Source: Victivallaceae bacterium (GTDB taxonomy: Bacteria; Verrucomicrobiota; Lentisphaeria; Victivallales; Victivallaceae). Taken from it: a DNA stretch of 64,000 nt. A program made the position numbers and the translations under genes. The notes beneath the pieces are model-generated. The model had not been told where the DNA came from. It was given only the letters and a program-made list of their open reading frames with translations, and made no database searches. The stretch lies in contig JAZRGW010000023.1 of assembly GCA_045644425.1 (NCBI GenBank), positions 71,592 through 135,591 of the forward strand, in the 5' to 3' direction. Of the stretch, positions 7,624-58,479 are shown one piece after another. The first letter of the stretch is position 1, and each line of letters opens with the position of its first letter.

Positions 7624-8385
7624 ATGAAAAAGTGTTCCCTTAAAATGCAGTTCACCCTTATCGAATTGCTCGTTGTGATCGCGATCATCGCCATCCTCGC
7701 CGCCATTCTGCTCCCTGCTCTCAATTCTGCAAGGGAAAGAGGCAGAGCTGCAAGCTGTATCAATAACTTGAAACAGATCGGACTTGCGGTGGATTCGTAT
7801 GCAAATGATTGGGATGAATGTTATCATGTTAATGGACATGCAAATATTGATTCCGAGGCGAAATATGAATGGGCAAGAGTATTCGTCAAGCTCGGTTATC
7901 AGCCGGATGGTTTCGCGATTGTCCGTTGTCCGTCGACTACACTCTCCCCGACCGGGGCATCAGGGATCAGCACTTATGGAGTAAACGTGCGTTACCATGC
8001 CGGAATGAATCGCAACAGCACCAGCAGAGGTAGCTGGGACGACACGAATGACGCGAAGATTTACAAAGGTTTTGCAAACCGGAAAGATCTGACCCGTCCA
8101 TCTGAATATCCGACCCATGTCGATTGCGTCGGCAGTAATAACAGCTGTGAAGCAAAATATCAGGGTTATGCCTATTATCAAGTAAAAAATGTTGACGGTT
8201 ACGGAGCCGGTCTTCCCTATTGCGTTCACTCCAACAAGAGCCATGCTGTTTTTGCTGACGGTCACGCCGATGGAATCCAGAGAGAAAACTGGGCTAAAAT
8301 TTATGCCTACGGCTGTATTGACCAAAACTTTGCAGTCTACAATTACAGTAATGGAAGTTTGAGCGGTTACGTTACTCAGCAGTAA
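7624..8385 (+). CDS. Prepilin-type N-terminal cleavage/methylation protein, DUF1559-like pseudopilin (H-x9-DG)
   Basis: Leader [54 protein letters not shown]-terminal [12 protein letters not shown]. Confidence 0.9.
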
Positions 8386-8429
8386 ATCATCTTTTCGTTG
8401 AAAACAATCACTTAATCAAAGGCTGAAAT

Positions 8430-11400
8430 ATGTTTAATAAGACCCTTTTTGTGCTCGCAGCGGCGATTTCCGCATCACTTCTGCACGCTGAAAATCTGAT
8501 CAAAAACGGAGACTTTTCCTCCGGAAAAATCGCTCCGTGGCTCACTCCTCAAGCCCGGAATCTGCATATCATAAAAGACGGTAAAATTGTTGTTTCCGGT
8601 GATCCCGGCAATAAATACAATAATTTTATCACCATGGTACAGTATCTGCCCTCTCTGGAAAAAGGTAAAAGATATCTGCTCTCTGCCGAGGCTCTGCCGC
8701 AAGTAAAGAATGTCGGCAAAAAATGGGCAAAAATCGTTATCCGTCAGGCGGATAAAAAGAATGTGACCATCAACTACACCGGTAAAAATATCGATTTGGG
8801 AAGTTCCGGACTTCAGAAATTGAATACCGTTTTCACCCCCGCCCCAAATGCGGCATCATTCCAAGTATATATCCAGAGTTCCGGATTGGAAAAAAGCGAT
8901 CTGATCACCATCGACAATATCACATTGGATATTGCTCCGGAATTGAAAGCCGATCAGGGTAATTTCGTGCAGAACGGCAGCTTTGAACATCACGATCTTT
9001 CGCCGTGGAGAAGTAATTTTTTCAAGCAGAACTTTTTCAAACTTTCCGGCGATACCGCATTCGGCAAACAGTGTCTGACCGTTACCGGAGATAAAAAATT
9101 CCGCTACAACAACTTCATCACCATGATCCAGGATCTGCCGGTACTCGATCCGGATAAAGAGTATGTGCTTTCTGCAAGGATCCGTGCCGGTCTGAAAAAT
9201 ATCAAAGGCAAAAGCGTGGAAGTTTCCATCCGTCAATCCACTGCTGCCGGTCAGACCATCAGTTACAAAGGTTTTCAGGCAAATCTGTCGGATGACAGCT
9301 GGAAATATCACGAAAAAATGTTTCAGCCCTCCAAGCTCGCCGGTAAATTTGAACTCTATATCATCGTCAAAGCTCTGGATAAGGATGATCTCGCAGCTAT
9401 TGATGAAATAAAATTGACCGTCAAAGGCGGTGAAGGTGCTGCTTTTGACCCGAAAGCAGCAGTCAAAGTGCCGGTAAAAAAACTTCAGCAGGATAATATG
9501 ACCGCTGAAATCAATACCGCTACCGGACTTCTGCATAAACTTTCCGCCGGAAATCTGCTCATCCAGCCCGGAGCCAAAGCTTCCACCGTTGTTGCCGTCA
9601 GCAATAACGGCAAATCATTTGAGCTTGACGGTAAAAATACTCCCGCAGGTGGTTTTCAGGCAAAGGCAGAGTACGATTTCAAAGACGGAATGTTCCGGGA
9701 GATCATCACGGTCAAAGCATTGCAGGATTTTTCCGACCCTGTCCGCATCGCCGTCCGTCACGGTTTTGATCAGAAATCATGGCAGAAACATATCGGGGCT
9801 TTGCGTCCCTTGAGAATCCGCGACATCAACGAAGCAACGATTTTCAGTTACAGCGAAAATACCAATGACCTCAATCCGGGGATCCTTGAGCAGTATCAGC
9901 ATACCGCTTATCCGCTGATCATTCTGGAAAGTCCGGATCACTATCTGATCGCCGGATCACGTTCTCTGGATGATTTTGTCACCCTTTCCCCCAACTACCC
10001 GGCAGGATACATCCCCTCGCTCCAGCGGAATCCGGTCAAAGTGAAAAAAGGTGATGTTTTCCGTTTTGAAAGCAACTGGAAACTTTTCAGCCGCAAAGAG
10101 GTCATGCTCCGGGATGTGTGGAGATTCTATCAGGATAATCTGCAGACTTCCGATCCGGTTCTCGGCAAGTTCTTCCCGCCTGCATTCCGGGAAAGACGCC
10201 ACTTCTACCCCGGTATTTTCGGCAGTCACACCTACTTTATGAAAGAGCGGGAAGATCGTCTGCCCGATGGTGCCAATGTCTGGTTTTACAGCTGGCACGA
10301 CAATATCCATGAACGTTATCCGGTTTCCGGTTCATGGTGGAGCAACGGCAACGCATGGAAAGAAAAAATCAACGCCGATGAACTCAAAGACTATATGAAA
10401 CGGCTGCAGAGCGAAAGAAAATTCAACCTCATCTTCTATCTGCGGCAGCTCGCCAATCTGCGTGAACGTGACCGGGGTGCTTTCCCCGATAACTGGTATA
10501 AACGTACCCCCGGCGGGGCACTCCATCTTTACGGCGGCGGATACACCGTCAAACTGCCGCAGAATGTGGCAAAAGATGTCGGTTACGACTCCATTCCGTG
10601 GGGTCAGCATAACTTCGCCAACCCCGATTTCCGGAAATTCTATCTCGATGAAATCTTTACCGCCATCAACTTCTATCAGCCCCGTGCCATCGGCTGGGAT
10701 ATGGGCAGCGATCTCCATGAATTTTCCGTAATCGCCGAAACCTATACCCGGCTCCGTAACGCAGGCGGCAAAGTCAAAGCCGTTGCCAATGAAAGTGCCG
10801 GTCCCACTCAGGCGTTTGCCGATATGGTGCTTCTGGAAAACGGTCTGCTCGGCGGCAAAAGTGCCTACGACTTTGAAATCGCCCGCACCTATACGACCAG
10901 TGTGGTCTGTCTGGAAAGATGGAATATTTTCCGCCTTGCTTTCGACAATCACACCACCGGCAGAAAAGTGTGGCTCAATAACAACGGTCTCAAAGAAAAT
11001 AAACGCTACTTTGATTATATCGTCAAAAAGCATCCGGAATTGAAAGAACAGTCAAGTCGTAACGAAACAGCCCGGCTCTGCCAGCTGCGGGCAAGCATCT
11101 ACGATCTGGCTCTCGGTGCCAGCCCCGGATATATGGAAGAAGCGAAACCGGTTCCGGAAACCCTTTTCAAAGTCGCCGGTGAAGTCAACGGCTTATTTGC
11201 AGTAAATAAAAGTTTTGCCGTCACTTTCCCCAACCGCAGCAATATTGATGGTCACAAGATCGTCAGTGCGTGGAACAATGATAAATCTTTCCGGCTGGTC
11301 GCTTTCAATGATCAGGTGCAGAATGCTGATTTCACCATCCTGCTCGACAAAAAATATTTTGCCGGTGAATCGTGGAGTCTGAAAGATATCAAAAATGGTA

Positions 11401-11528
11401 TCTGCAAAGCTGTAACCCCTGAAAATGAAAAAAATATGAGTGTTGATTTCAGCGAAAATGATTCTCACATCATCCTGAAATTCAAACTCTCCGCCTTTGA
11501 AGCATTGATGCTCAGTGCCGATAAGTGA
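8430..11528 (+). CDS. Secreted ~1030-aa protein, paralog B (divergent) of the CBM-CBM-unassigned-domain family
   Basis: Signal peptide and the same architecture and conserved blocks as paralog A: WFYSWHD..HERYP..GSWW, LYGGGY, IGWDM, ANESAGP, ENGLLGGKSAYDFE. It ends in SADK, like its paralogs (FADK). Confidence 0.85.
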   Translation: MFNKTLFVLAAAISASLLHAENLIKNGDFSSGKIAPWLTPQARNLHIIKDGKIVVSGDPGNKYNNFITMVQYLPSLEKGKRYLLSAEALPQVKNVGKKWAKIVIRQADKKNVTINYTGKNIDLGSSGLQKLNTVFTPAPNAASFQVYIQSSGLEKSDLITIDNITLDIAPELKADQGNFVQNGSFEHHDLSPWRSNFFKQNFFKLSGDTAFGKQCLTVTGDKKFRYNNFITMIQDLPVLDPDKEYVLSARIRAGLKNIKGKSVEVSIRQSTAAGQTISYKGFQANLSDDSWKYHEKMFQPSKLAGKFELYIIVKALDKDDLAAIDEIKLTVKGGEGAAFDPKAAVKVPVKKLQQDNMTAEINTATGLLHKLSAGNLLIQPGAKASTVVAVSNNGKSFELDGKNTPAGGFQAKAEYDFKDGMFREIITVKALQDFSDPVRIAVRHGFDQKSWQKHIGALRPLRIRDINEATIFSYSENTNDLNPGILEQYQHTAYPLIILESPDHYLIAGSRSLDDFVTLSPNYPAGYIPSLQRNPVKVKKGDVFRFESNWKLFSRKEVMLRDVWRFYQDNLQTSDPVLGKFFPPAFRERRHFYPGIFGSHTYFMKEREDRLPDGANVWFYSWHDNIHERYPVSGSWWSNGNAWKEKINADELKDYMKRLQSERKFNLIFYLRQLANLRERDRGAFPDNWYKRTPGGALHLYGGGYTVKLPQNVAKDVGYDSIPWGQHNFANPDFRKFYLDEIFTAINFYQPRAIGWDMGSDLHEFSVIAETYTRLRNAGGKVKAVANESAGPTQAFADMVLLENGLLGGKSAYDFEIARTYTTSVVCLERWNIFRLAFDNHTTGRKVWLNNNGLKENKRYFDYIVKKHPELKEQSSRNETARLCQLRASIYDLALGASPGYMEEAKPVPETLFKVAGEVNGLFAVNKSFAVTFPNRSNIDGHKIVSAWNNDKSFRLVAFNDQVQNADFTILLDKKYFAGESWSLKDIKNGICKAVTPENEKNMSVDFSENDSHIILKFKLSAFEALMLSADK

Positions 11529-11552
11529 TTTCATTCGAGGAAAAGATCGGCA

Positions 11553-11720
11553 ATGGAAAATTTTTACTTTGTTCAATTCACCGATATCCACATCGGTACG
11601 ATCGTCATACCGGAAATCGTTGAATTGAATCTGCAATGGGCGTTGAATGAAGTCAACAGCTTTGATCCGGCTCCCGGGAATCATCCTCTGCGGTCCGCGA
11701 AATGCCCCCAGAGGAACTGA
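11553..11720 (+). pseudogene. Relic of a metallophosphoesterase N-terminus (55 codons)
   Basis: The ATG 11553 ORF reads MENFYFVQFTDIHIGTIVIPEIVELNLQWALNEVNSFDPAPGNHPLRSAKCPQRN*. FVQFTDIHIG matches calcineurin-like phosphoesterase motif I (D-x-H), but the ORF stops before motif II (GD). It sits in the otherwise unexplained 298-nt gap between paralogs B and C. Confidence 0.4.
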
Positions 11721-11826
11721 TCCGGTAGTTTCCGGAGCATTGCAGGTACATCAGACTTTCCGGATACCTTTTGATTGATAAAAATCTGATTTATAATCTT
11801 CCATCGTAACAAAGAAAGGGAAAACA

Positions 11827-14800
11827 ATGAAAAAATTACTCGCTTTCATGCTGGCGGCTGGAACTGCCGCGGCAGCCGGTGCCGCCGATAATTTCGGTAT
11901 CAACGGCACTTTTGAAAAACTTGCCCCGTGGCGGTCTGCACAGCAGAGCGACGGCAAGGTCGTACTGCACAAAATCGTGCAGGATAACGGAAATCCCTGT
12001 CTGGAAGTTTGCGGTGATCCCCTGAACCGCCGCAATGCCAATATCATCATCGGTTCACCGATCAAAAATCTGGAAGCTGACAATACTTACTCCGTTTCCT
12101 TCCGTTACAAGCCTCAGGTCAAACCCGGAAAGAAAAAAGGATTGAAAGTCCGTGTTCAGCAGCACGATGCCAAAGGCAAAACCGTCGGTTACAACAACAC
12201 CAGTTACTTCTATGACAAAAATGAATGGCAGGATTTTATTTTCTCCTTCAAAAGCCATCCGGCTGCAGTCAAAAGTTATCTCTACATCGAAACCATTAAT
12301 CTGGAAACCACCGATAGAGTCTGGTACGATGATATCAAAATCGCCCAGACCGATCCGGCTGACCGGGGCGTGGTGATCAACGGCGGATTTGAACTGGGCG
12401 TTTTCCCGTGGATGAGCCATCAGCAGGGCGGCGGATGGAGACAGATCCACCGTATCAGTCCGGATACTCCTTTCGGTAAAAAATGTCTGGAAATCACCGG
12501 TGATACGGAAAATACCAGCAACCGGCTGATCATCCTCAATCAGAAACTTGCCGGTCTCAAAATCGGTACTCCTTACAAACTTTCCCTGCAGTTCCGTTCC
12601 AGTGTCAAAAGCGAACCCGGCCCGACCAAAGTCGTCTACGCCCGGCTCCAGCAGCTCGGTCCGCAGGGTTCATACATCATCGGTAATGAACTCCACTTTG
12701 CCCTCAACAGCGATCTCTGGACTTACCGGGAACTCACCTTTATCCCCGATAAACGTGCTTCCCAGTTCCTTATCTACATCTGCAGCGGAAATCTGAAATC
12801 CACCGATAAATTCTATATCGATGAAGTGACTATCAGTGAAGCCATCGCTCCGGGAAAACCCTTTGATGCTTCCAAAAATGCCAAAGCATTTTCCGCACAA
12901 GAGTTGAAAGATGCCCGCGGTCTGGCAAAAATCAATACCGCTGACAATACCCTCGCCGCACTGACTATCGACGGCAAAACCATCATCCCCGCCGCCGAAA
13001 ATGCCACGATGATCTTCGCCCAGCAGAATAATTATGAGGAGTACCTCGATGCCAAAGGTACTGCCGGGAAAAAACTGCCCTTCAAGGCTTCAGCAGAATA
13101 CAAATGGGTCAATGGCGAATTCCGTCAGCTCGTGACCATCACCGCCACTGCCGATGCCAGAGGACCATTTAAAATCGGTGTCCGTCACGGTCTTATCCAG
13201 AAAGATTGGAATAAACAGCTTTTCGGTCTTTTCCCGATGCGTGTTCTGCCTGCCGGTGAAGAAACTGTTTTCACTTTCAACGGTGATACCAACGACCTCA
13301 ATCTTACCCAGATGGATCTTTATCAGGGCGTGATCATGCCGCTGCAGGTCATGGAAAGCGAAAAAGCCTATCTCGCTGTTTCCAGCCACAACTACGATGA
13401 TACCATCACTTTCCGCCCCAATATCCCCAATGGTTACACTGCGGCATTTGAACGCAACCCACTGCGGGTGAAAAAGGGTGATAGCTTCCGTTTTGAAGTC
13501 AACTTCAAACTCTTTGACCGCAGCAAATTCATGCTCCGCGATGTGTGGCGTGACCAGATCTTTGCCCTTTATTCCAACCGTCCGGAACTCAAACCCTATT
13601 TCCCGGTCAAAGATCCCGGTCCCCGTGCCGTCGTTTCCGGTCCGATGGGTTCAGTTACCGGTATGATTCCCTCCCGGATCAACCGCCTTTATCCCAACAG
13701 TGCCATCTGGGAAGGCTGGCACGATACCCCCAATGAAGAATTCCCCACTTCCGGTTCCTGGTGGAGCGGAAGCAACGGCTGGGAAAAACCCTTTACCGCC
13801 GGAGCATTCAGAACACATGTAAAAAATTGTCAGGATAGAGGCTTATCCATCATCGCTTACATGCGTACTTTCTGCAATCTGGACTACGCAGGAAAACGTT
13901 TCCCCGCCAACTGGACCAGAAAAACTGCCGGCGGCGGTCTCCAGCTCTACGGCGGCGGCTACCGTGTGCAGCTGCCCAAACATGTGGAAAAAGATACCGG
14001 ACTCAAAGAAGTGGTCTGGGGTATGTTTGATACCTTCCAGCCCGGATGTCTGGATTTCCTTGTCAAACGCTTCACTAAAGTCGTCGATTACTACAAACCG
14101 TGGGCGATCGGCTGGGATTGTGCCGGTTTCGGTCCGGAAGATTTCCTGATGGTCGCCGCCATGACCCAGAAACTCCGTACCAACGGCTACAAAACCAAAG
14201 TCGTCGGCAACGAGTGTACCGGTCCCATCAATGCTTATCTTGACTGGACAATGATCGAAAACGGTTTCTTCGGAGGAAAAACTCCTTACGACTATGAAGC
14301 GATCCGTGCTTTGCCGCTGCCGGTCGCATGTCTGGAACGTTTCAACCTTTCCCGTGACATGGTCAATTTCTACCTCTACAACAAACGCACCTGGTGCCGC
14401 CCCTACGGCAAAGAGTGGAGCTGCCGCTATCTGGACTACCTCACTGCAAAACAGCCGGAATTGAAGCAGAAAGCCAACCAGAAAAAACTGGAACACCACA
14501 TGCAGCTGACCTGGTACTACAAAGACCTCTCTCTCGGTGCCCCCGGCGGTTATATGGAAGAGTGCAAACCCATTCCCGCTTCCATGGTCAAAATGTGCAG
14601 CGAAGCCAACGGTATTATCCGTATGGATAAAAGTTTCGCCATCCGTTTTCCCAATGGCAAAGAAGATGATGGCCCTCTGACTGCCTGTGCATGGGCTGAT
14701 AACAAGACCAAAAAGTTCCGTCTCGCAGGTTATAACGAGGCAAAAACCACGCAGAAATTCCGTCTGACTCTCGACAAAGCCGCCTTTGCCGACGTCCAGT

Positions 14801-14958
14801 GGAGCATGGAAGATATCGCCCGCAATCTGAAAGCTTTCATCGCCGATGTGGAAGGTGAAAAAGCGATTCAGGTCAAAACCGAAATGGTCAACGGCAATCT
14901 GGTAATTTCCTGCGATCTGCCTGCCTATACTGCACTGCTGCTTTTTGCAGACAAGTAA
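11827..14958 (+). CDS. Secreted ~1040-aa protein, paralog C (close to paralog A)
   Basis: Collinear with 4471-7596 along the full length, at roughly two-thirds identity by eye. Same motif blocks (WEGWHD, LYGGGY, IGWDC, GNECTGP, ENGFFGGKTPYDYE). Confidence 0.85.
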   Translation: MKKLLAFMLAAGTAAAAGAADNFGINGTFEKLAPWRSAQQSDGKVVLHKIVQDNGNPCLEVCGDPLNRRNANIIIGSPIKNLEADNTYSVSFRYKPQVKPGKKKGLKVRVQQHDAKGKTVGYNNTSYFYDKNEWQDFIFSFKSHPAAVKSYLYIETINLETTDRVWYDDIKIAQTDPADRGVVINGGFELGVFPWMSHQQGGGWRQIHRISPDTPFGKKCLEITGDTENTSNRLIILNQKLAGLKIGTPYKLSLQFRSSVKSEPGPTKVVYARLQQLGPQGSYIIGNELHFALNSDLWTYRELTFIPDKRASQFLIYICSGNLKSTDKFYIDEVTISEAIAPGKPFDASKNAKAFSAQELKDARGLAKINTADNTLAALTIDGKTIIPAAENATMIFAQQNNYEEYLDAKGTAGKKLPFKASAEYKWVNGEFRQLVTITATADARGPFKIGVRHGLIQKDWNKQLFGLFPMRVLPAGEETVFTFNGDTNDLNLTQMDLYQGVIMPLQVMESEKAYLAVSSHNYDDTITFRPNIPNGYTAAFERNPLRVKKGDSFRFEVNFKLFDRSKFMLRDVWRDQIFALYSNRPELKPYFPVKDPGPRAVVSGPMGSVTGMIPSRINRLYPNSAIWEGWHDTPNEEFPTSGSWWSGSNGWEKPFTAGAFRTHVKNCQDRGLSIIAYMRTFCNLDYAGKRFPANWTRKTAGGGLQLYGGGYRVQLPKHVEKDTGLKEVVWGMFDTFQPGCLDFLVKRFTKVVDYYKPWAIGWDCAGFGPEDFLMVAAMTQKLRTNGYKTKVVGNECTGPINAYLDWTMIENGFFGGKTPYDYEAIRALPLPVACLERFNLSRDMVNFYLYNKRTWCRPYGKEWSCRYLDYLTAKQPELKQKANQKKLEHHMQLTWYYKDLSLGAPGGYMEECKPIPASMVKMCSEANGIIRMDKSFAIRFPNGKEDDGPLTACAWADNKTKKFRLAGYNEAKTTQKFRLTLDKAAFADVQWSMEDIARNLKAFIADVEGEKAIQVKTEMVNGNLVISCDLPAYTALLLFADK

Positions 14959-44440: not shown

Positions 44441-44452
44441 GGTCTTCCGACG

Positions 44453-48901: not shown

Positions 48902-49021
48902 ATCCCTTTCTCAACTATATCAAACTTTGAAAATAATATAGCATCAATGCCTGATTTATCAATCTTAAAAGTTCAACAAAATACAACTTCAGACATTTTT
49001 ATAAACAGCTTTTGGCTGATA

Positions 49022-49060
49022 TAAAAAAGCGGTGCTGCAAACATTGAGTTTTGCAGCACC
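49022..49060 (-). terminator. Rho-independent terminator after the LamG gene
   Basis: GGTGCTGCAAA / TTTGCAGCACC stem, followed on the minus strand by GCTTTTTTAT. Confidence 0.8.
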
Positions 49061-49083
49061 ACCTTCCGGAAAAATTATTCAGA

Positions 49084-49842: not shown

Positions 49843-49860
49843 AATAATCTGATTCCTTTA

Positions 49861-50607
49861 TTATTTCTGAACGAGGAAGAACAAAGCCCCCTCGCTGCCA
49901 GCGGTAGCACTGGAGTCAGCATAACTCTGAAGCGTATTGCGGTTCAGAGAGTCAACATGACCATCAAGTTTCAAAATATTAGCACTGTCATTGTGACGGG
50001 GATTTATCGACTGATTGGCTTTGGCTGGATAAATATACCCGGGAGAGAAATAGGGATGAGTGATAGCATCCATTTCAGCATCAACCGCATAGGCAATGGT
50101 ATTATAGTTTTTGAAACTTGCAACTTTGCGGGTGCTTGATTCAAAAGCATAAGTTGTGTCAGCCGCACCATATCCACCGGCAACTGCATAGCTGAAGAAG
50201 GGATAAAGATTAGCCAAATCGGTGTCATTCATACGGTCGATTTGGGCCAAGGCGGCTTTTGCCTTGCCTTCCACTGATGCAGGAGAACTCGGACAGCCGA
50301 AAATATCAATAGTTCCGGCATATTTAGTCATTGTTCCCGACCAACGCAGAGAATTGGTAGTGACCGTTGGAGACTGACAAAAACCCGGTATGTAATCTTC
50401 ATTACCCTGCGAATACATGACTACATTAGTTCCAAGTTGTTTCAGATTGTTGATACAGCTTGCAGTACGACCGCGCTCGCGGGCAGAGTTGAGTGCCGGC
50501 AGCAGGATCGCTGCCAGAATCGCGATGATCGCGATGACCACGAGGAGTTCGATAAGGGTGAAGCATTGCTTCACCCGCCAGCTGGCGGCAAAATTTTTCT
50601 TTTCCAT
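49861..50607 (-). CDS. DUF1559-like pseudopilin (prepilin leader, H-x9-DG)
   Basis: [51 protein letters not shown]-terminal [12 protein letters not shown]. Confidence 0.9.
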
Positions 50608-50643
50608 TTTTACTTTTCCTTTCTTTTTTGGTTTTGGAAAGTT

Positions 50644-51513
50644 TTATTTTCTTAAAACACCGATATCTTTAAGCCAGTAAATCAATTCATCCGCCCACGG
50701 GTGGCGGGGATTGCCCAGACCCAATCCGTGACGGCCGCTGTAATAGATGTGGAGCGAAAACGGTACTTTATTCGCTTCCAGAGCATTGACAAAATCCAGT
50801 GCGTTGCGTACCGGCACGGATGCGTCGGCAAAGGTGTGCCAGACAAAACACGGCGGCGTATCCTCATTGACAAATTTATATGCCGCCACATCTTCAATTT
50901 TAGCATCAGTGCCGCCAATAAGATTATTGCGGGAACCGCAGCACTCACCGTAACGCTGATCCATAGATGTCTGGGCATAGCAGAGGATCGCAAAATCCGG
51001 ACGGCTGCTCTTTTTATCCACCGGATCTTTGGCATCTTTGATACCGAAATCATTTTTCACCGCCGTCATCGCCGCCAGATGTCCTCCGGCAGATGATCCC
51101 ATAATGCCGACCAGTTTGGCATTTATATTCCACTTTTTTGCATTGAATCTTGCCAGACGGATGGCACGTTTGGCATCCAGCTGCGGTGCGGGATAGCGGT
51201 AGGAACCATTGGACTTCGCTCCGGTACGGTAACGCAGAACCAGACCGGCAATACCGTGCTGATTGAGAAATTTCGCGTAATTGGTTCCCTCATGCCCGTA
51301 GGCAAGTCCGCTGTACGCACCACCGGGGCAGATGATCACTGCCGGAGTGCGTTTGCCGGAATTCGGCGGCAGAAAAACTTCCAGCATCGGAATATCCCGG
51401 GGTTCTTTCCCTTTGGCAAGTGGAGCATCACCCTCCCAGAGCCGGACTTTTTCCGCCCCGGAAAGGAGCAACGCAACGCAGGCAAAGGTGAAAATAAAAA
51501 ACTTTTTCATCAC
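50644..51513 (-). CDS. Secreted alpha/beta hydrolase fold-3 esterase (carbohydrate acetyl-esterase-like)
   Basis: Signal peptide, ICPGGAY, the nucleophile elbow GSSAGGH, and a late ...HGLGL. Confidence 0.75.
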   Translation of the reverse strand: MMKKFFIFTFACVALLLSGAEKVRLWEGDAPLAKGKEPRDIPMLEVFLPPNSGKRTPAVIICPGGAYSGLAYGHEGTNYAKFLNQHGIAGLVLRYRTGAKSNGSYRYPAPQLDAKRAIRLARFNAKKWNINAKLVGIMGSSAGGHLAAMTAVKNDFGIKDAKDPVDKKSSRPDFAILCYAQTSMDQRYGECCGSRNNLIGGTDAKIEDVAAYKFVNEDTPPCFVWHTFADASVPVRNALDFVNALEANKVPFSLHIYYSGRHGLGLGNPRHPWADELIYWLKDIGVLRK

Positions 51514-52646
51514 TTTTTCAATCCCTCTTTGAATTTTTTCAGTGTTTCAAGCAGGATCATGCCGTTTTTCTCATCCGGTTCGAGATAGCTGCCCTCGGTC
51601 CACTCATTCCACGCATTGATAAAGATCGCTTTCGGAGCGTATTCGGCAAGAGCTTCAAGCAATTCGCCGAAACCCTCTGCATCCGGATCCATCACCGGCA
51701 AATAGGGATAACCAATAAGCTCATAAACATCGCTCTGGATCGTCCGCGGGGAAGAATCCCATCCGGCAGTCACCACCGGCAGATAGGGTGCAGGCAGGGT
51801 TTTGAATGCTTTTTCCGCCAGTTCCAGATAGATGCGGTTGGAATCTTTGAAATCAACTTTCAAATCCTTATCCCAGAGCGGATGGGGAAAAAGGCAGTTG
51901 TAACTGGTATAACTGTCAAACCCCGCCCGGGTACTCCACTCGGCAGTGGTACAGGGAGAAGAGGGAGCATTATCCAGATTGTCGTACCATACAGCATTGA
52001 TATGCAGACCGGGAAGACCGGCAGCTTTCACCTTTTCACGCAGAGAATTCAGCACTTCGGCACAATCTTCCACTCCGCCCATCTGTTTGATGAAACGGTT
52101 GGTGGCATAGATGGAAAAATACGGTACTCCATCAAGATACCAGTAGTTTTTATGAGTAAAATATTTTTCAATGAGCATATCCCAGATCTCACCGACATTC
52201 TCTTTGGTACTATTCCACCGGTAGAGCATTTTCGGATTGTAAACATCCCTGCCGCAGGGATGGCGGTCAAACCAGTCATGGTTCGCCCACATGATGGCAA
52301 ATTTGAAATCTTTATCTTTGACCGCAGGCAGAAATCCTTCATCCAACGCCCGCTGCAAATACGGTCCATCATACCAGTACCAGTCAAAAATAAACGCATC
52401 CAATCCGTGAGCTTTGGCAGTGTCGATCTTTTTTGCCATCACTGCCGGATCAGCTTCATCCTCATAACCCCATACCGGAATTTTCGGCTGCTGATGACCG
52501 GGAAAACGGGAACGGGCAAGCTTCATAAGCTCCCACTCCGTCCACCCTTTGCCGTGATACTCCTCATTTTTGGTATCGGCATGGTAATTGGGGAAATAGT
52601 AGGCGGTAATATCCATGATTCTGAAAAAACTCCAACTTTTTGTCAT
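51510..52646 (-). CDS. GH99-like / WbsX-family domain protein, no signal peptide
   Basis: AYYFPNYHADTKNEEYHGKGWTEWE and FINAWNEWTEGSYLEPD are hallmark WbsX/GH99-like strands. A 4-nt ATGA overlap joins it to the esterase gene. An alternative start exists at ATG 52616. Confidence 0.75.
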   Translation of the reverse strand: MTKSWSFFRIMDITAYYFPNYHADTKNEEYHGKGWTEWELMKLARSRFPGHQQPKIPVWGYEDEADPAVMAKKIDTAKAHGLDAFIFDWYWYDGPYLQRALDEGFLPAVKDKDFKFAIMWANHDWFDRHPCGRDVYNPKMLYRWNSTKENVGEIWDMLIEKYFTHKNYWYLDGVPYFSIYATNRFIKQMGGVEDCAEVLNSLREKVKAAGLPGLHINAVWYDNLDNAPSSPCTTAEWSTRAGFDSYTSYNCLFPHPLWDKDLKVDFKDSNRIYLELAEKAFKTLPAPYLPVVTAGWDSSPRTIQSDVYELIGYPYLPVMDPDAEGFGELLEALAEYAPKAIFINAWNEWTEGSYLEPDEKNGMILLETLKKFKEGLKK

Positions 52647-52811
52647 TCTTACACATAATTGTCCGATATATAATTATACTGCAAAAACATCGCATATACC
52701 TTAATTGTATTGCAAATTTATAGTACAATTTTGCAAAATCGCCTTTTTTTCAATAAAAAATATAAAAATCAGTTTGCAATACTTTGAGTTCGGTTGTAGA
52801 GTAAAAACATT

Positions 52812-53699
52812 ATGGAAGAAATAAAGAAAATAATCCGTTTTAAAAATCTGTGGCCCCAGGGAACTTTTCCGGTGATGGTGCGTGACACCTATCAGGATGA
52901 GTTCGCGGCGGCACACTCCCACGACTATATCGAAATAGCTCTGGTGCATAACGGCAGAGGTACTCATTTAAATCATTTTCCAGACGGCAGAGTGATTGCC
53001 AATACCATCATCAAAGGCGATCTTTTTGTCATCCTGCCCGGAGAGATCCACTCCTACGCCAACTGCCGGGCATATCAGGTCTACAACCTCTGTATCGGAG
53101 TGGAGTTTTTCCATACCCTTTATCCGGAATTGGTTAATCTGAAACATTACAAGCAATTCTTTTCCGGAAACCGTCTGCCAGAGGTCAATCAGCTCCATCT
53201 GCTCCCCAGCCGTTTCAGCAGTGCCGAAGATAAACTGCGGCGTCTGGCAACTGCACTGCGGTCAACTGCACCAAGTGCTTTGCTGGCAGTGAAACTCGCT
53301 CTGACCGATTTCCTTTTCACCGTATTTGATGATGATTCAGGTAACTGGAAACTGCTGGAAAATGATCTCAATTACCGCCTTTCCCAATCAATTATCCAGA
53401 TGGAGGCAAATCCGGAAAAGAAGTTCGATCTGAAAACATTTGCCCGTAAAGCGGGAATGAGTGCTTCAGGTTTTTCCCACCAATTCAAAAAAGTTATCGG
53501 CGTACCGCCGGGGGATTACTGCCTTTTTCTGAAACTGGATAAAGTTCGCAAGCTGTTGGAAAATAAATCATTGAGTATGACCGAAGTCGCTATCACCTGC
53601 GGTTTTACCGACAGCAACTACATGATCCGGGCTTTCAAAAAACGTTTCGGGATCACCCCCGGGAATTACCGTGCCGGATTACTGCAAATCGATAATTGA
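52812..53699 (+). CDS. AraC-family transcriptional regulator (cupin sensor + HTH)
   Basis: An N-terminal cupin-like region (HSHDYIEIALV) and a C-terminal AraC HTH pair (...AGMSASGFSHQFKKVIGVPPGDY...GFTDSNYMIRAFKKRFGITPGNYR). Confidence 0.9.
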   Translation: MEEIKKIIRFKNLWPQGTFPVMVRDTYQDEFAAAHSHDYIEIALVHNGRGTHLNHFPDGRVIANTIIKGDLFVILPGEIHSYANCRAYQVYNLCIGVEFFHTLYPELVNLKHYKQFFSGNRLPEVNQLHLLPSRFSSAEDKLRRLATALRSTAPSALLAVKLALTDFLFTVFDDDSGNWKLLENDLNYRLSQSIIQMEANPEKKFDLKTFARKAGMSASGFSHQFKKVIGVPPGDYCLFLKLDKVRKLLENKSLSMTEVAITCGFTDSNYMIRAFKKRFGITPGNYRAGLLQIDN

Positions 53700-53821: not shown

Positions 53822-53863
53822 AAAAAATCAGGCTGCTGCAAAAAAAATATTTTTACAGCAGCC
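53822..53863 (-). terminator. Rho-independent terminator (usable in both directions)
   Basis: GGCTGCTGCAAAAA...TTTTTACAGCAGCC stem. The minus strand continues TGATTTTTTAT. It lies 17 nt after the stop of 53880-55049. Confidence 0.75.
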
Positions 53864-53879
53864 CAGACTTGTTTTCGCA

Positions 53880-55049
53880 TTACCTGATAACGTCAAGCAG
53901 TTCAAATTTTTCACTGCCGAGAGTTCCGGAAAATTTGCCTTTCATCCCGGCTTCAGGCAGTTTGAAAGTCAGCGTATAAGCTTTACCGGGAATCAATGCG
54001 GGCAGATCAGCCGATCCCAGAGCAATGGAAGGTTTGCCGGGTTGAGTGATTTTCAACGTCACCTTTCTCGCCGGTGCAGATTTGTAAGCAGAAAAGGTCA
54101 GATTTGCCTCTTTGTCATTGATTTTCAACTCCATTGCCGTTTCACCGATGATCTCACGCAAATCGGAAATTCCGGGAAAAACCGCAAGTTTGTAACTGTA
54201 AGAACCGGCAAGATCCTTATCCAGAGCCAGCTGCGGCATGATCACTTCGATCGTGCGGCAGACTTTACCGCTGAAATTATTGCTGAACCATGAGTAAAAG
54301 GTACATTTTTTTCTGTCATCCTTGAAAAGCAGTGCCATTGCCACCTTTTCCGCCGGAGCAGATACGGCGATCCAATTTCTTTCCGGAGCGAAATAGGTAT
54401 TCGGAGCATGCCAGCCGCCACGGTAAATACCCGTTGCAGGAAAATCGGTCTTATTCCCCAGACCATTGACCGCATCACCGCCGACAGTGGGAATGGCAGC
54501 GACCCACTTCACCTCGCCGGATGGCATCATATTCAGCCACGGAGCAGTATATCCTTGCCGGGGATGAGTGCGGAATTTCACATTCACATCGAAATTGACC
54601 GCAAAAGCATCTTTTTCAAGCGTCACTTTACGGGTCAATTCAGCTGACAGATTACCGTATTCCGGACAATAAAGGGTGATCGAATCCGGGGTGGATTCTT
54701 TCACTGTCATATTGGAAATGATTCCGTCATTGCCGCGCCAGAACTTTTCCTGGAAAAGCACTCCGGAAGCCTGCGGATAAACAATCAGCGGTCCCCGGGT
54801 AATCTGCAGAAGTTTTCCACCCCAGAGCAGCGGAATATTGCCATTTTTCAGCGTGATATTCTCAATACCGCCGCTGAGTCCGGGGTAAAGGGAAAGACAG
54901 AAAATTTCATTTTCAATAACGCTCCGGTCGGAAGCAAGTGTCAAAACTTCTTCCTTATCCATCCGGACGGAGTGTTTCACCGACGGATGCTCAGATGTGC
55001 AGCCTGCCGCAAGAAGCAGCAATGCCAGAAATCCGGTAACTTTTTTCAT
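53880..55049 (-). CDS. Probable lipoprotein, 389 aa, beta-sandwich/mutarotase-like, unknown function
   Basis: MKKVTGFLALLLLAAGC lipobox-like leader. A 4-nt ATGA overlap joins it to the upstream 935-aa gene. Confidence 0.7.
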   Translation of the reverse strand: MKKVTGFLALLLLAAGCTSEHPSVKHSVRMDKEEVLTLASDRSVIENEIFCLSLYPGLSGGIENITLKNGNIPLLWGGKLLQITRGPLIVYPQASGVLFQEKFWRGNDGIISNMTVKESTPDSITLYCPEYGNLSAELTRKVTLEKDAFAVNFDVNVKFRTHPRQGYTAPWLNMMPSGEVKWVAAIPTVGGDAVNGLGNKTDFPATGIYRGGWHAPNTYFAPERNWIAVSAPAEKVAMALLFKDDRKKCTFYSWFSNNFSGKVCRTIEVIMPQLALDKDLAGSYSYKLAVFPGISDLREIIGETAMELKINDKEANLTFSAYKSAPARKVTLKITQPGKPSIALGSADLPALIPGKAYTLTFKLPEAGMKGKFSGTLGSEKFELLDVIR

Positions 55050-57853
55050 TTGTCACCCCCGTTTTCAAAACAGCGTTTGACCGGCAGGTGTTTGCCGCGC
55101 ATATTGAACTTTTCCAGCACCTCCGCCGGACAACCGTCAGTGGCTCCCATGCCGCTGTAAATCTCAAAACGTCTATCCATCACATGTGAAAGATCACGCA
55201 CCATCATATCTCCGGAGTAACTGTCACGGGCATTAATGGTGATCGCATTGCCCTTGCGGGAAATACCGCATTTGGCAGGATCTTTTTCTTTGAAGTTCAA
55301 GAGGATATAGGGTTTATTCTGCGGTATTTTGCCGGAAATCACCACATTGCCGTATTTGCAGAGTTTATTCTGTGCCGCATATTGGAAATATTCCTGGAAG
55401 TTTTCCGCCAGAAGCAGGGCATCTTTATCACCGTTTTCCGGCACGACCACGACAAAATCCGGAACTTTTTTCTCATTCAGGAAGGGGAATGAAAGATATT
55501 CCGCCGCCGTATTTCTGAACTCGGTGGAATTGTAGGTCAGAGTTACCACAGATTCCGGAACGAATTCCACGTCGCTGTCAGTTTTGACGATTTTGCCGTT
55601 CACCTTGATCTCTGCCGGAGCGAAGTTGCGGATCTTGCGGGGAGTGACCGATGCGGTGAAAGCGGAACTGTTTTTGAGTTTGACGGTAAAAACCTCTTTA
55701 TTCAGATCTTTGACCGAAGAAACTTTCACATCGCCGTCGGGCAGAAAGGAAAATCCGCACACCGCTTCAAAAAGCACCGGAATACGGGAGGGAATTTCAA
55801 AATCAAAAAGAGTTTCTTTGCCGTAAACCGACTGCTCAAGCGATCCGGCATCACGCATTTTACGCACGAAAACATACGATTTATCACCGAGCAGATCATT
55901 GCTTACTGCAAAGCGGGCAGGCATCGGTTCCTCATAGGGATTACCATAGAAAAGAATGGTGTTTTCACCTCTGCCGTAACGTGCCTGATAGGCGATTTTG
56001 CCATCATTGTCGCAAGCGACCGGAACAACGGCCTGCCAGCCGTGACGGATACACTCCAAAAGTTCCGGCATGGCATACTGGGCTGTGGCATTGCCGCTGT
56101 AAAGCTGGGCACTGGAGGTCATGCCGTAACGGAATTCGGTGAAAATCGCATAATCCATCATCTTGCCCAGACGGACGAGAAATTCACTCTTTTTCAGTGA
56201 ACGCCAATCCGGGATCAGCTGCGGGATCATGTAGCCTTTGCCGTGGATAATGGCAGGCAAAGCACCGAAAGTGTAACGCCAGTGCGGCATTTTGTCGTGG
56301 AAACCACGCTCAAACGGAGTTTTTTCCATCATGATCACGTCGGCATTCATCGTACCGTTGGCAGCAATAAAAGGACGCTTGTAAGCCGGAAGCGTGGGAG
56401 CAAGTTTTTCCCGGATGTATTCAAAAAGCACCGTCTGGGCAACACTGGAGTCGATATAGACTCCTTTTTTATCATAAGCTCTGCCGGGCAGATCGTAATT
56501 TTTTACCGCCGGTCCGCGATAGTAGCAGCCGCTGCCGGAACAATCGAAGCTGAATCCGGGCATAGTAAGTTCATCATAGACCAGTTTCAGGTCTTTATAA
56601 TACTGTTTGGCAAAACTGGTTCCCATCGGGAAAACACGGGCATCCTGATCGTGATAATTTGTCCAGCCGGTTTTATAAATAGCAACCACGCCGCCGTCGG
56701 TATCGGAGACAAAGGAGTCGGGATATTTGCTCTGAACCAATCCCCAGTCACAGAAAGTGCCGCTGGCACTGGGATAGAAGGCAAAACCGAACTTTTTACC
56801 GTACTTATCGAAGACACCTTTGCGGTTTTTGTGGAAATCTTCCACGGAAAGTTTCCTCCAGTCAAAAGGACCGAATTCGCCGCCGACGATCTGGTTGATG
56901 TAGCCCAGACGGAAATTTCTGGCAAGCGGTTTATAGTTCCACAACTCTTTGTGTCCGTAAATATCACCGCTGCGTTTGTAGGGGGCGTATGCCCAATCCC
57001 ATGCCATATAAAGACGGCGGAAAAATTCATAATTGGGTTTGTAAGTCCATGCACGGTACATGGCGTGAGCATACCAGATATATTTATTATCCTGACCGAC
57101 GTAGGGAGTCCACTTTTCAGGGAATGAGTCAAACATCGCCTGAATAGCATTGACTTCCCAGCCGAAACGGTTTTCGACTGAACCAATGAGAAAACGGAAA
57201 GTGGTTTTGCGTTTCGGACCGAGAGCTGTTCTGCCGGAATAACGGAGATTGGCATTGTCAGATGTGAATTTATCCACTGCGGAACCGAGCCATGAGTATT
57301 TGTCATACATCACACTGCCGAGAATGAAACTGCGTTTGGCATCGCCGTAAATGGCAAGAGATACCGGCATTTCAAAGGCTGAAATATTGGCAACGGCACT
57401 GCCGCTTTTGAATCCGCCGCGCGACATCGCTTTGCCGGTAACGGGGATCTTACTGAATCCGTCGTAGAAGAAATCTTCTTTGGTGCGGGGTACGGTCAGA
57501 TTCAGAGCCGGTTCGAGGAAAAGTTCCTTATCCTGAGTATTGGCAATGGTCAATTCAGTGAGGATCAACCGGTTGCGTGCAGAAAATTTCACGCTCACAT
57601 CCGAGGTACCGGCTTTGAATTTCACCATACCGGTATTATCGGCGAAAAATGCTTCCCCCGGCATGATCGCTTCAAATTTGCCGCTTTTACCGTTGAGAAC
57701 GGAAATCGAACCATTCAAACGCTGGCCGTCAGGAGTTTCAATGGTATATTTACCATCAGGTTTGAGTTCAGTAAGAGTAACTTCCGGCACGGTGACTGCG
57801 GCAGAAAGCAGCAGCGGAATAAGTGCCCCGATCAAAGAAATTTTACGGATCAT
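55046..57853 (-). CDS. Secreted 935-aa protein of unknown function, possibly distantly related to the C-terminal domain of the 4471/8430/11827 family
   Basis: Start ATG 57853 has GGAGG 7 nt upstream (the track start is 57877). Signal peptide MIRKISLIGALIPLLLSAAV. Blocks YPDSFVSDTDGG..IYKTGW and GFSFDCSGS echo YPAEWVRKTPGG..LYGGGY and GIGWDCAGF. Confidence 0.75.
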   Translation of the reverse strand: MIRKISLIGALIPLLLSAAVTVPEVTLTELKPDGKYTIETPDGQRLNGSISVLNGKSGKFEAIMPGEAFFADNTGMVKFKAGTSDVSVKFSARNRLILTELTIANTQDKELFLEPALNLTVPRTKEDFFYDGFSKIPVTGKAMSRGGFKSGSAVANISAFEMPVSLAIYGDAKRSFILGSVMYDKYSWLGSAVDKFTSDNANLRYSGRTALGPKRKTTFRFLIGSVENRFGWEVNAIQAMFDSFPEKWTPYVGQDNKYIWYAHAMYRAWTYKPNYEFFRRLYMAWDWAYAPYKRSGDIYGHKELWNYKPLARNFRLGYINQIVGGEFGPFDWRKLSVEDFHKNRKGVFDKYGKKFGFAFYPSASGTFCDWGLVQSKYPDSFVSDTDGGVVAIYKTGWTNYHDQDARVFPMGTSFAKQYYKDLKLVYDELTMPGFSFDCSGSGCYYRGPAVKNYDLPGRAYDKKGVYIDSSVAQTVLFEYIREKLAPTLPAYKRPFIAANGTMNADVIMMEKTPFERGFHDKMPHWRYTFGALPAIIHGKGYMIPQLIPDWRSLKKSEFLVRLGKMMDYAIFTEFRYGMTSSAQLYSGNATAQYAMPELLECIRHGWQAVVPVACDNDGKIAYQARYGRGENTILFYGNPYEEPMPARFAVSNDLLGDKSYVFVRKMRDAGSLEQSVYGKETLFDFEIPSRIPVLFEAVCGFSFLPDGDVKVSSVKDLNKEVFTVKLKNSSAFTASVTPRKIRNFAPAEIKVNGKIVKTDSDVEFVPESVVTLTYNSTEFRNTAAEYLSFPFLNEKKVPDFVVVVPENGDKDALLLAENFQEYFQYAAQNKLCKYGNVVISGKIPQNKPYILLNFKEKDPAKCGISRKGNAITINARDSYSGDMMVRDLSHVMDRRFEIYSGMGATDGCPAEVLEKFNMRGKHLPVKRCFENGGDK

Positions 57854-57858
57854 TTTTA

Positions 57859-58479
57859 TTACCTCCATGGTGTCCATAATTGATTTTTTACATTGAAGTG
57901 TCCATTCGGCTTTCTGCCGCCGAGATCTTTTTCGGTGTAAAGCCGGATATTACCGGCGGCTGTGATATAATGGAAACGGTTGCTGTGCCGTTTGGTTCCG
58001 GGATTCTGAACCGGCTGCAGCATCGGGATTTTGGCATCGCCGAAAATTATCAACTTTTCCGGATTGATAAAATTGTGCATGGTGGCACGCCGGGTTTTAC
58101 TGTTGTAAGTGTGCATTCTTTCATTCATCCCGTAACTGGAAACAGAGGTACAGTGCAGCTGGGGAACCAGCGGATCAGGTTTCTCTTTATACATATGAGC
58201 ATTGCGGTAATCTTCCGGACAGGCGGCAAATTGACGGGTTCCGTAATACGGATCGATCTTGCCGCTCCAGAATGTCCAGAGCGGTTTTTCCTCTGTCCAC
58301 ACCGGAGGCATCACCCCGTAAGTTTCGGCATAATTCTGCATAAGACGCAGGATCTGCCGCAAATTATCCGCACAAAGAGCCTGCTTCGCATCTTTCCGGG
58401 GTGCCGCTCCGGTAAAAAGCAGAAACAACAGCAGCAATACCGGCAGACATAACAAAAGTTCTTTACAGCTTTTCATCAC
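57859..58479 (-). CDS. Degenerate DUF1559-like protein (ordinary hydrophobic leader, H-x9-AG)
   Basis: LCADNLRQILRLMQNYAETYGVMPP aligns with the [10 protein letters not shown]... region of the pseudopilins. The G/FTLIE cleavage-methylation site is absent and the C-terminal motif reads HSNRFHYITAAG. Confidence 0.7.
   Translation of the reverse strand: MMKSCKELLLCLPVLLLLFLLFTGAAPRKDAKQALCADNLRQILRLMQNYAETYGVMPPVWTEEKPLWTFWSGKIDPYYGTRQFAACPEDYRNAHMYKEKPDPLVPQLHCTSVSSYGMNERMHTYNSKTRRATMHNFINPEKLIIFGDAKIPMLQPVQNPGTKRHSNRFHYITAAGNIRLYTEKDLGGRKPNGHFNVKNQLWTPWR

Follow-up and report, generated by a model that had tools for sequence, protein, structure and literature searches.

Why should genes for type IV pilin-like proteins recur within runs of genes for large exported, glycan-related proteins? 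The question is raised by a stretch of 64,000 nucleotides from an uncultured, gut-type Victivallaceae bacterium (assembly GCA_045644425.1, contig JAZRGW010000023.1, positions 71,592 to 135,591), called here the window, in which a preliminary description had placed five genes of the DUF1559 type (pp1 to pp5, Table 1), one inside every large operon for secreted carbohydrate-active enzymes (CAZymes). All five open reading frames were present and reached the gathering threshold (23.3 bits) of Pfam PF07596 (SBP_bac_10/DUF1559). The proposed assignment by hidden Markov models held in Pfam and NCBIfam, DUF1559/SBP_bac_10 being matched by all five proteins and N_methyl (PF07963/TIGR02532) by pp1 to pp4, with no such match in pp5. 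The sequence comparisons reported below make it a plausible and partly supported reading that this pilin-like family is used as an operon-specific accessory.

Membership of a very large type-IV-pilin-like family of the Planctomycetes-Verrucomicrobia-Chlamydiae (PVC) type, characterized by N_methyl, DUF1559/SBP_bac_10 and H-X9-DG, was well supported, as was the layout of each gene product, which consists of a near-invariant hydrophobic N-terminal helix with Glu at +5 and a hypervariable beta-rich head. In all five cases the PF07596 match was confined to the start of the profile, over its first 30-65 positions out of 268. For pp1 to pp4, the prepilin leader and the H-X9-DG motif announced earlier were confirmed by motif, alignment and N_methyl match, the residue at -1 being other than Gly. 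These four proteins share an identical 32-residue segment, two conserved cysteines and a C-terminal H-X9-DG(H). The DNA of the shared segment was only ~77% identical and the differences were synonymous, indicating that it has been kept by protein-level selection and not by recent gene conversion. The NCBIfam model of the motif (TIGR04294, cut-off 19 bits) was reached by pp2 only (19.6 bits), the motif being visible in all four, and a six-frame motif scan of the window revealed no prepilin motif beyond those of pp1 to pp4. Among 86 homologues, F, T, L, I and E of the N-terminal motif were invariant and the remaining alignment averaged 23% column identity. The invariant or nearly invariant residues of the head (C45, C102, Y118, G119, D167, H202, D212, G213 and H214) may point to a disulfide and to a His/Asp site that could bind metal. 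The closest homologue of pp1 (98% identity) was labelled as a Lentisphaeria metagenome-assembled genome (MAG), and the next genome match was a Victivallaceae MAG.

An AlphaFold2 model of pp1 built with the 86 homologues (pLDDT 87, pTM 0.83) displayed a 50-residue N-terminal helix (residues 12-62) and a beta-rich head. Sequence searches of the PDB matched the helix alone, to Geobacter, Neisseria and Pseudomonas pilins and to GspG, and the best Foldseek matches of the model, pilins FimA (E=0.07), CofA and TcpA, were weak (E=0.07-1.7). GspG (TIGR01710), ComGC, PilA and Verru_Chthon models all scored far below their cut-offs. With 30-33 bits against a cut-off of 88.85, and positions 1-59 of the 134 in the model aligned, the window genes are not GspG; Verru_Chthon C and D (TIGR02599, TIGR02596) reached 15-22 bits against 256.5 and 70, over the N-terminal helix only. 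Because of these helix-only, weak and sub-threshold matches, the pp1-type protein is predicted to be type-IV-pilin-like with a head unlike any solved one. A correspondence of the H-X9-DG region with the C-terminus of GspG was considered and rejected: the alignment to the GspG model ends at position 59 and Foldseek returned no GspG match.

The gene map was built from the open reading frame list and Pfam scans of 40 window proteins, and the pilin-like genes make up 5 of its 42 genes. The claim that they are embedded in operons stood as far as tight co-directional runs are concerned, since these were found around all five, with -19 to 86 nt between each pilin gene and the next. Upstream and downstream gaps were 27 and 44 nt for pp1, 19 and 86 for pp2, 124 (or 40) and 35 for pp3, and 36 and 18 for pp4, and the terminator scan found no strong terminator inside cassettes 1-4. 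The claim failed for pp5, which opens its own three-gene unit: the 254-nt upstream gap, the strong terminator of the upstream gene and a promoter-like site imply that this gene is not embedded. Every gene immediately downstream of pp1 to pp5 encodes a signal-peptide-like N-terminus, in line with the exported neighbours described before; the second gene of cassette 4 departs from that description, the small protein being followed by a 539-residue melibiase-like protein without signal peptide instead of one of 900-1000 residues. The LacI and AraC regulators of the earlier account were recovered by Pfam, pp3 being the first structural gene after its LacI-like regulator. The term 'secreted-CAZyme operon' suits cassettes 1, 2 and 4, which hold glycosidase-like, GH2, esterase and lectin-like proteins; for cassettes 3 and 5, in which no enzyme was recognisable, it would be presumptive. 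That the pattern extends to every CAZyme operon was not borne out, given these two cassettes and its occurrence in only about 44% of independent family members.

Gene order was conserved in other genomes for three of the cassettes. The order of cassette 1 (LacI, GH2, an optional carbohydrate-binding module (CBM) protein, DUF1559, two CBM proteins) was found in four other Lentisphaeria, where the pilin is 47-74% identical and its gene often stands as a tandem pair, and the LacI and GH2 pair also heads the orthologous loci L001, L005 and L007. The order of cassette 2 (GH2_C, DUF1559, proteins of 256, ~1030 and ~1024 residues) recurred on three or four contigs (L086-L089), the small partner being ~52% identical. 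The triad of cassette 5, a pilin-like protein, a protein of ~910-940 residues and a lipoprotein of ~370-400, occurred in three further lineages at identities of 31-40%, 36-44% and 26-28%, respectively; in two of these relatives a canonical DUF1559 gene precedes the triad, and on a Ratteibacteria contig a 24%-identical homologue of the 943-residue protein adjoins two pilin genes. No close orthologue of pp3 or pp4 was found in the metagenome scan, and tblastn detected no homologue of the cassette 3 and 4 partners in any fetched locus. Pairings kept in such distant relatives point to real modules. It is well supported that each copy in this Lentisphaeria genome belongs to a conserved module of few genes, most often controlled by a regulator of the sugar type (LacI or AraC), and that this module comprises a pilin-like gene, an optional gene for a secreted lectin-like or other protein of ~250-275 residues, and at least one gene for a Sec-exported protein of ~900-1050 residues.

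Other arrangements were also observed. Locus L002 (1103-2690), on a metagenome contig, is an exception to the conservation of cassette 1: it has the same tandem pilin pair without the two CBM genes seen in L001 and L003, their place being taken by an opposite-strand epimerase gene, through recent break-up of the module or mis-assembly. On six Planctomycete contigs (L045, L046, L055, L065, L070 and L083), the gene behind a DUF1559 gene or array encodes a member of a conserved lipoprotein family of 165-214 residues with the motif ...HPPVYPVKGKV... and no Pfam match, which may be a lineage-specific small partner. Six Verrucomicrobia contigs (L049, L060, L068, L069, L073 and L079) display a polarity opposite to that of Lentisphaeria, with a signal-peptide protein of ~890-980 residues upstream of the pilin gene and a protein of ~360-440 residues after it.

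The extent of the linkage was evaluated on 80 genome and 80 metagenome loci around family members, which were the best 80 hits of each kind and not random draws. The enrichment test left out the window and all orthologues of cassettes 1 and 2; the target had to lie within two co-directional genes downstream, and the expected rate was the frequency among genes at least four positions away. Behind pilin runs of the Lentisphaeria type, with neither Gly nor Ala at -1, a signal-peptide protein of at least 500 residues followed in 16 of 36 cases (17% expected, p=1.4e-4), a significance reached only after the metagenome sample had been added and the loci split by the -1 residue. Runs of the Gly/Ala type gave 13/69 (11% expected, p=0.03). 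Pooled over phyla, the first downstream gene was signal-peptide-like in 52% of cases, compared with 31% of distant genes (p=0.004). The linkage is therefore real but partial. Within the window, all four co-directional runs holding a protein of at least 900 residues also hold a pilin gene (P≈0.05); the window taken alone is weak evidence for linkage.

These figures bear on the simplest alternative, namely that there is no specific link: mobile paralogues of high copy number would be scattered over a genome rich in secreted proteins, and adjacency would follow from abundance and shared regulation. Consistent with it are the marginal coincidence within the window, the size of the family (more than 8000 candidates in one search), the description of the Tuwongella genes as 'evenly spread around the genome' (PMC8567305) and the lack of a large exported neighbour in over half of the independent copies. 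However, three different modules (cassettes 1, 2 and 5) hold their gene order down to 31-52% identity, enrichment was significant in independent loci, head and partner co-vary (see below) and stop and start codons overlap in cassette 5. This alternative is accordingly very improbable, and chance in a high-copy family does not account for the repeated synteny pointed out in the preliminary description.

The composition of the neighbourhoods points in the same direction as far as glycans are concerned. Among 75 Lentisphaeria genes from outside the window lying at most two positions from a pilin gene, the commonest Pfam families were CBM_4_9, LacI/PBP, GH2, LamG_3, GntR, DUF4838 and rhamnosidase, a list that draws largely on cassette-1 orthologues; among 86 distant genes they were housekeeping families. 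The 49 non-redundant large downstream proteins included DUF4838, GH123_N, GH2, GH42, GH3, CBM9, LamG_3 and arabinofuranosidase domains, together with some unrelated genes. In the window itself, the catalytic or carbohydrate-binding domains recognised were GH2, GH2_C, those of three CBM_4_9 proteins, a BD-FAE esterase and a melibiase-like protein. The ~1040-residue proteins of cassette 1 are paralogues (33-62%), each of them combining two CBM_4_9 modules with a body resembling a glycosidase. The model of the one encoded at 8430-11528 (AlphaFold2, pLDDT 75.5) comprised four sandwiches (two CBMs, one further and one C-terminal) and a (beta/alpha)8-like barrel, and Foldseek matched it to a CBM22/CBM16 tandem (E=5e-11), GH101 (3ecq, E=9e-9), GH31, GH36 and GH27. 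On the strength of these matches, the large proteins of cassette 1 are credibly new CBM-bearing glycosidases with a GH-D-clan-like fold. The proteins of 1030, 915, 943, 259, 275 and 389 residues matched nothing in Pfam, NCBIfam or PDB sequences, and PDB searches with four large partners and with profiles of the small partner and of the 389-residue family were equally negative.

Partner proteins of different cassettes were unrelated, so the term 'cassette-specific' used earlier is appropriate. The large partners form at least 49 BLAST clusters, an extreme diversity on one common pilin scaffold, and the family of the 259-residue small partner of cassette 2 counts only 15 members, all from Lentisphaeria. 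Several candidates for a shared partner feature were discarded. A single conserved family of small partners in cassettes 2, 3 and 4 was rejected on hhalign probabilities of at most 8% (LamG_3 does recur in some); no docking motif or domain common to the large partners was found among the 49 or more unrelated clusters; and the weak protein A matches, the only ones given by the 943-residue family profile against the PDB, were rejected as spurious. Two further observations concern the partners. The 635-residue protein of cassette 2, which has no Pfam match, shares a region of ~500 residues with the adjacent 1087-residue protein (21% identity, E=1e-12). A pilin gene followed by a secreted LamG_3 lectin-like protein of ~250-265 residues and a secreted protein of 1171-1454 residues recurs on unrelated contigs.

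Co-variation between pilin and partner was assessed with pilin heads alone (N-terminal 50 residues removed) for partners from different loci that were homologous at less than 50% identity. Head similarity tracked partner homology (of 11 independent pairs, 9 exceeded the 80th percentile of the same-type background; P=2e-5), and it did so even at 20-40% partner identity. Such tracking is explained by shared ancestry of whole modules, pilin and partner being inherited together, so that the unit of inheritance would be the module and not the pilin alone. Our preferred reading, which we hold tentatively, is that of an operon-specific pilin-like adaptor coupling its cognate exported proteins to a shared machine resembling a type II secretion system (T2SS) or a pilus. 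The invariant helix would dock every paralogue into one common assembly machine of the T2SS or type IV pilus (T4P) kind, encoded elsewhere, and the module-specific head would bind the co-expressed exported protein or proteins; each operon would thus supply its own adaptor, handing cargo to the machine for outer-membrane passage or tethering. This account is preferred because overlapping, conserved adjacency usually marks physical partners, because the head co-varies with the partner family, and because partners are highly diverse on a constant scaffold.

A different function can be proposed from the same context: the head would bind the polysaccharide targeted by the operon, and the protein, assembled into or onto a retractile fibre or a short pseudopilus across the periplasm, would concentrate or import the substrate for the enzymes made with it, as a functional analogue of SusD or of surface glycan-binding proteins. 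Sugar-type regulators, neighbouring glycan enzymes and hypervariable heads on a constant stem fit such glycan-capturing pilins, as does the lack of any transporter or known binding protein in the five cassettes (Pfam). Dextran has been reported to bind the crateriform pili-like fibres of planctomycetes (PMC5394234), and a xylan-regulated Caldicellulosiruptor pilus reportedly adjoins CAZyme genes (bioRxiv 10.1101/614800). Glycan capture alone, however, does not predict a strict order with the pilin gene directly upstream of the exported protein, nor a triad coupled by gene overlaps in which one member is a lipoprotein and another is devoid of CAZyme signature, nor the co-variation of head and partner family, and Foldseek detected no carbohydrate-binding fold in the head. 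We regard it as the main rival of the adaptor reading, but as rather unlikely.

The N-termini raise a separate problem. Canonical prepilins carry Gly, rarely Ala, at -1, as required by the prepilin peptidase. Directly before FTLIE, pp1, pp2, pp3 and pp4 have Q, S, R and C, respectively, and not Gly. Among the sampled loci, Gly/Ala occupied this position in 100% of Planctomycete and Verrucomicrobia members; Gly was found in only 6 of 51 Lentisphaeria members, the others having N, S, Q, H, C, K, R, T, Y and further residues, and in 27 of the 120 best homologues. Leaders were as short as two or three residues, F+1 and E+5 being still invariant. As for pp5, it lacks the FTLIE motif, ends in H-X9-AG and starts with M-KSCK-E-LLL.... 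An exhaustive search retrieved 117 representative clusters of related proteins of ~200-220 residues, with an N-terminus of the form M-[RKN]-x-x-[KR]-E-L-hydrophobic in which the leader is the initiator Met only and a Glu still occupies the equivalent of position +5, counted from that Met. Where their context was retrieved, these leaderless genes always precede genes for a protein of ~910-940 residues and a (lipo)protein of ~370-400. As judged from these comparisons, pp5 is a divergent but intact gene of a conserved subfamily and not a wreck. Either the peptidase of this lineage would be independent of Gly, or these proteins would work uncleaved.

The second option leads to another explanation, in which the protein stays uncleaved in the inner membrane and its head serves as dedicated chaperone or scaffold for the folding or hand-over of the large exported neighbours. 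The loss of Gly at -1 in Lentisphaeria, the subfamily with nothing but an initiator Met as leader and the tight coupling of gene pairs would all be accounted for. Planctomycete members were found in membrane fractions (PMC8567305), and a precedent is provided by T2SS chaperones that reportedly associate with the membrane, serve one cargo each and are encoded beside it (PMC4713064). On the other hand, F+1, T, L, I and E+5 were invariant in the 86 homologues and the Glu was retained even in the leaderless subfamily; the FTLIE pattern would reflect selection by pilus or pseudopilus assembly, beyond the needs of a simple anchor. Moreover, no resemblance to known families of chaperones was seen. 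An uncleaved anchor seems improbable.

Several results weigh against the adaptor reading. Canonical prepilin processing, which is normally needed for assembly, is made doubtful by the non-Gly residues at -1 and by the leader-free pp5. As the preliminary description had noted, no domain of a T2SS/T4P ATPase, platform protein, secretin or prepilin peptidase occurs in the 40 window proteins scanned with Pfam, and such core genes were also absent from the commonest families near the sampled loci. Foldseek gave no significant match of the head to GspG or to solved pilins (best E=0.07). A large exported protein comes after only ~44% of the independent copies of the Lentisphaeria type and 19% of those of the Gly/Ala type, and planctomycete copies often form tandem arrays without large neighbour. 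When Lentisphaeria loci from the genome scan alone were considered, the large-protein test gave 7/24 (17% expected, p=0.11), and signal peptides were found in 45% against 36%, which was not significant. Finally, external genes were defined by a simple codon-bias caller that reproduced the window map, with pilin genes identified by hidden Markov models and signal peptides called heuristically.

Comparison with known systems places the adaptor reading among several partial precedents. The DUF1559 proteins of other PVC bacteria are alike in domain matches, in the N-terminal helix followed by ...ARE.ARR..C.NNLKQ, in H-X9-DG and in massive paralogy. The Lentisphaeria copies differ by the loss of Gly/Ala at -1, by the restriction of the alignment to the start of the Pfam profile, and by large glycosidase-like, CBM or LamG partners where Planctomycete loci have tandem arrays and the small lipoprotein. 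In the pul system of Klebsiella, pullulanase adjoins its own T2SS genes under maltose control. There too, a pilin-like gene whose helix can be aligned (GspG model positions 3-59) is co-regulated with a large exported glycan enzyme, but the head is about twice as large in our proteins and structurally unmatched, no GspC-F, L, M or D gene is nearby, and each cargo operon has one pilin-like gene instead of one pseudopilin set for all cargo. In type IVb pili, the minor-pilin heads of CofB and TcpB each bind one secreted protein of the same operon (CofJ and TcpF, respectively) and are needed for its release. The pairing of a pilin with a specific secreted protein in one operon is similar, but those pilins are single-copy, lie inside a pilus biogenesis operon and have the canonical Gly at -1. 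Bacteroidota polysaccharide utilization loci (SusC/SusD) likewise group a regulator, glycoside hydrolases and non-catalytic accessories per substrate, whereas our cassettes lack a TonB-dependent transporter or SusD-like protein (no SusC-like transporter or SusD-like Pfam family was found in any window protein scanned) and have a pilin-like protein as recurring accessory.

More distant parallels exist. The substrate-specific T2SS chaperones of Acinetobacter are reportedly small N-terminally anchored proteins adjoining the exported enzyme, with the machine encoded elsewhere; they belong to other protein families without pilin-type helix and Glu+5, so that homology is not expected (PMC4713064). 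Crateriform fibres of planctomycetes (PMC5394234), whose proteins would be of the pilin type, and the Caldicellulosiruptor pilus associate such proteins with polysaccharide capture and tie them, by genomic position or by transcription, to glycan use; the Firmicute example is reportedly one complete type IV pilus locus beside a glucan-degradation locus and not dozens of single operon-embedded pilin genes (bioRxiv 10.1101/614800). Within the PVC group, expansion of the family is documented (PMC4807772, PMC10632474, PMC2754498), two DUF1559/H-X9-DG genes are essential in Planctopirus (PMC10632474), and in the planctomycete Tuwongella (2021) N_methyl plus SBP_bac_10 genes are often flanked by signal-peptide genes and their products fractionate with membranes (PMC8567305). 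Pilins go unmentioned in a 2025 review of the phylum. The novelty implied by the preliminary description thus holds in part: no paper assigning a function to the DUF1559/H-X9-DG family was found in the literature searched, but the family, the H-X9-DG motif (TIGR04294) and the signal-peptide flanking were already on record. New here are the conserved Lentisphaeria modules with glycosidase-like, lectin-like or unmatched large partners, the co-variation of head and partner, and the Gly-independent and leaderless N-termini.

Table 1. Pilin-like genes, cassettes and associated features (window coordinates unless a locus is named; aa, amino acids)
Feature	Position	Strand	Details
pp1	7624..8385	+	prepilin-type DUF1559/H-X9-DG, 253 aa; PF07596 36.3 bits, N_methyl, TIGR02532; -1 = Gln
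pp2	31303..32079	-	prepilin-type DUF1559/H-X9-DG, 258 aa from ATG; PF07596 41.9, N_methyl 32.1 bits; -1 = Ser
pp3	42828..43577	+	prepilin-type DUF1559/H-X9-DG, 249 aa; PF07596 24.3 bits, N_methyl; -1 = Arg
pp4	49861..50607	-	prepilin-type DUF1559/H-X9-DG, 248 aa; PF07596 37.4, N_methyl 29.7 bits; -1 = Cys
pp5	57859..58476/58479	-	'leaderless' DUF1559-like, 205/206 aa; PF07596 23.5 bits
Codons preceding FTLIE	7648-7650, 32029-32031, 42882-42884, 50563-50565		
Cassette 1, ~1040-aa proteins and pp1	4471..14958	+	order LacI, GH2, CBM protein, pp1, CBM protein, CBM protein; recognisable enzyme: yes
LacI regulator, head of cassette 1	899-1984	+	Pfam
GH2-type glycosidase, head of cassette 1	1990-4434	+	Pfam
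Three paralogous ~1040-aa signal-peptide proteins around pp1	4471-7596, 8430-11528, 11827-14958	+	two CBM_4_9 each
Cassette 2	21667..33757	-	Pfam; order GH2_C, pp2, 259 aa, 1030 aa, 1087 aa, 635 aa; recognisable enzyme: partly (GH2_C, esterase domain)
GH2_C	33757-32099	-	Pfam
259-aa secreted protein	31216-30437	-	
1030-aa protein	30337-27245	-	
1087-aa protein	27132-23869	-	C-terminal esterase domain; Pfam
635-aa protein	23574-21667	-	
Cassette 3	41744..47200	+	order LacI-like, pp3, 275 aa, 915 aa; recognisable enzyme: no
LacI-like regulator	41744-42703	+	Pfam
275-aa secreted protein	43613-44440	+	
915-aa secreted protein	44453-47200	+	
Cassette 4, including divergent AraC	47282..53699	- (AraC +)	Pfam; order WbsX-like, BD-FAE esterase, pp4, LamG_3-like 252 aa, melibiase-like 539 aa; recognisable enzyme: yes
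WbsX-like	52646-51510	-	Pfam
BD-FAE esterase	51513-50644	-	Pfam
252-aa LamG_3-like secreted protein	49842-49084	-	Pfam
Melibiase-like 539-aa protein	48901-47282	-	Pfam
Divergent AraC regulator	52812-53699	+	Pfam
Cassette 5, transcription unit	53829..58710	-	terminator and promoter scan; order pp5, 943 aa, 389-aa lipoprotein; recognisable enzyme: no
Terminator of upstream AXE1 gene	58710-58682	-	strong
Promoter-like site	58554-58526	-	
943-aa secreted protein	57877-55046	-	19-nt overlap with pp5
389-aa lipoprotein	55049-53880	-	4-nt overlap with 943-aa gene
Downstream terminator	53865-53829	-	strong
LamG_3 arrangement	L010 (6686-7462), L053 (958-1755), window 49084-49842		

Some features of the window lie beside the cassettes (overall GC ~46%). 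The two hairpins bracketing the pp5 unit carry the same palindromic arms, TTGCAGCAGCCC, and matches to this arm occur five times in the window against 0.24 expected by chance. A tmRNA gene (37547-37904, minus strand; tag peptide ANEEFALAA) fills a seemingly empty 1-kb gap, and smpB (41252-41713, plus strand) is located 3.3 kb from it, after grpE-dnaJ and directly upstream of the LacI-like gene of cassette 3. A 632-residue protein (35260-37158, plus strand) is built from seven treble-clef zinc-finger repeats of the DUF4379 family (E=2.6e-145); its gene lies in a stretch of low GC (41-42%, ~32-40 kb) and is possibly foreign DNA because of its highly atypical codon usage, for which it was rejected by the codon-bias caller. 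Right after the pilin-rich region, at 60287-63107 (plus strand), are the genes of a PFL-like glycyl-radical enzyme and its radical-SAM activase, whose frames overlap or are 13 nt apart depending on the start codon chosen.

Few paralogue families of Planctomycetota, Verrucomicrobiota and Lentisphaerota are larger than that of the DUF1559/H-X9-DG proteins, which counts dozens to hundreds of members in a single genome. In gut, rumen, soil and ocean, complex and sulfated glycans are degraded to a major extent by these phyla, which to our knowledge lack SusC/D systems. If the family supplies operon-specific adaptors or binders, this would explain how PVC bacteria organise substrate-specific secretion or capture. 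It would also provide a workable criterion in the search for new glycan-active enzymes, as many of the large partners match no known family, and pp2 with its 259- and 1030-residue neighbours, or pp5 with the 943-residue protein and the lipoprotein, represent small and concrete target modules. A wider proposal, unlikely in its entirety, is that of a modular export and display code in PVC-type bacteria, in which each glycan-induced operon would have its cargo-matched adaptor, a shared machine entered through the invariant stem would select, export or tether the large enzymes of that operon, and the Lentisphaeria proteins would have escaped the Gly-1 rule, their leaders ending in any residue or shrunk to the initiator Met. 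Such a code would be a route to substrate-specific polysaccharide use other than SusC/D, and it would imply a non-canonical peptidase or peptidase-independent assembly in Lentisphaeria. Gly at -1 is regarded as a universal rule among type IV pilin-like proteins, and its loss here puts that rule in question.

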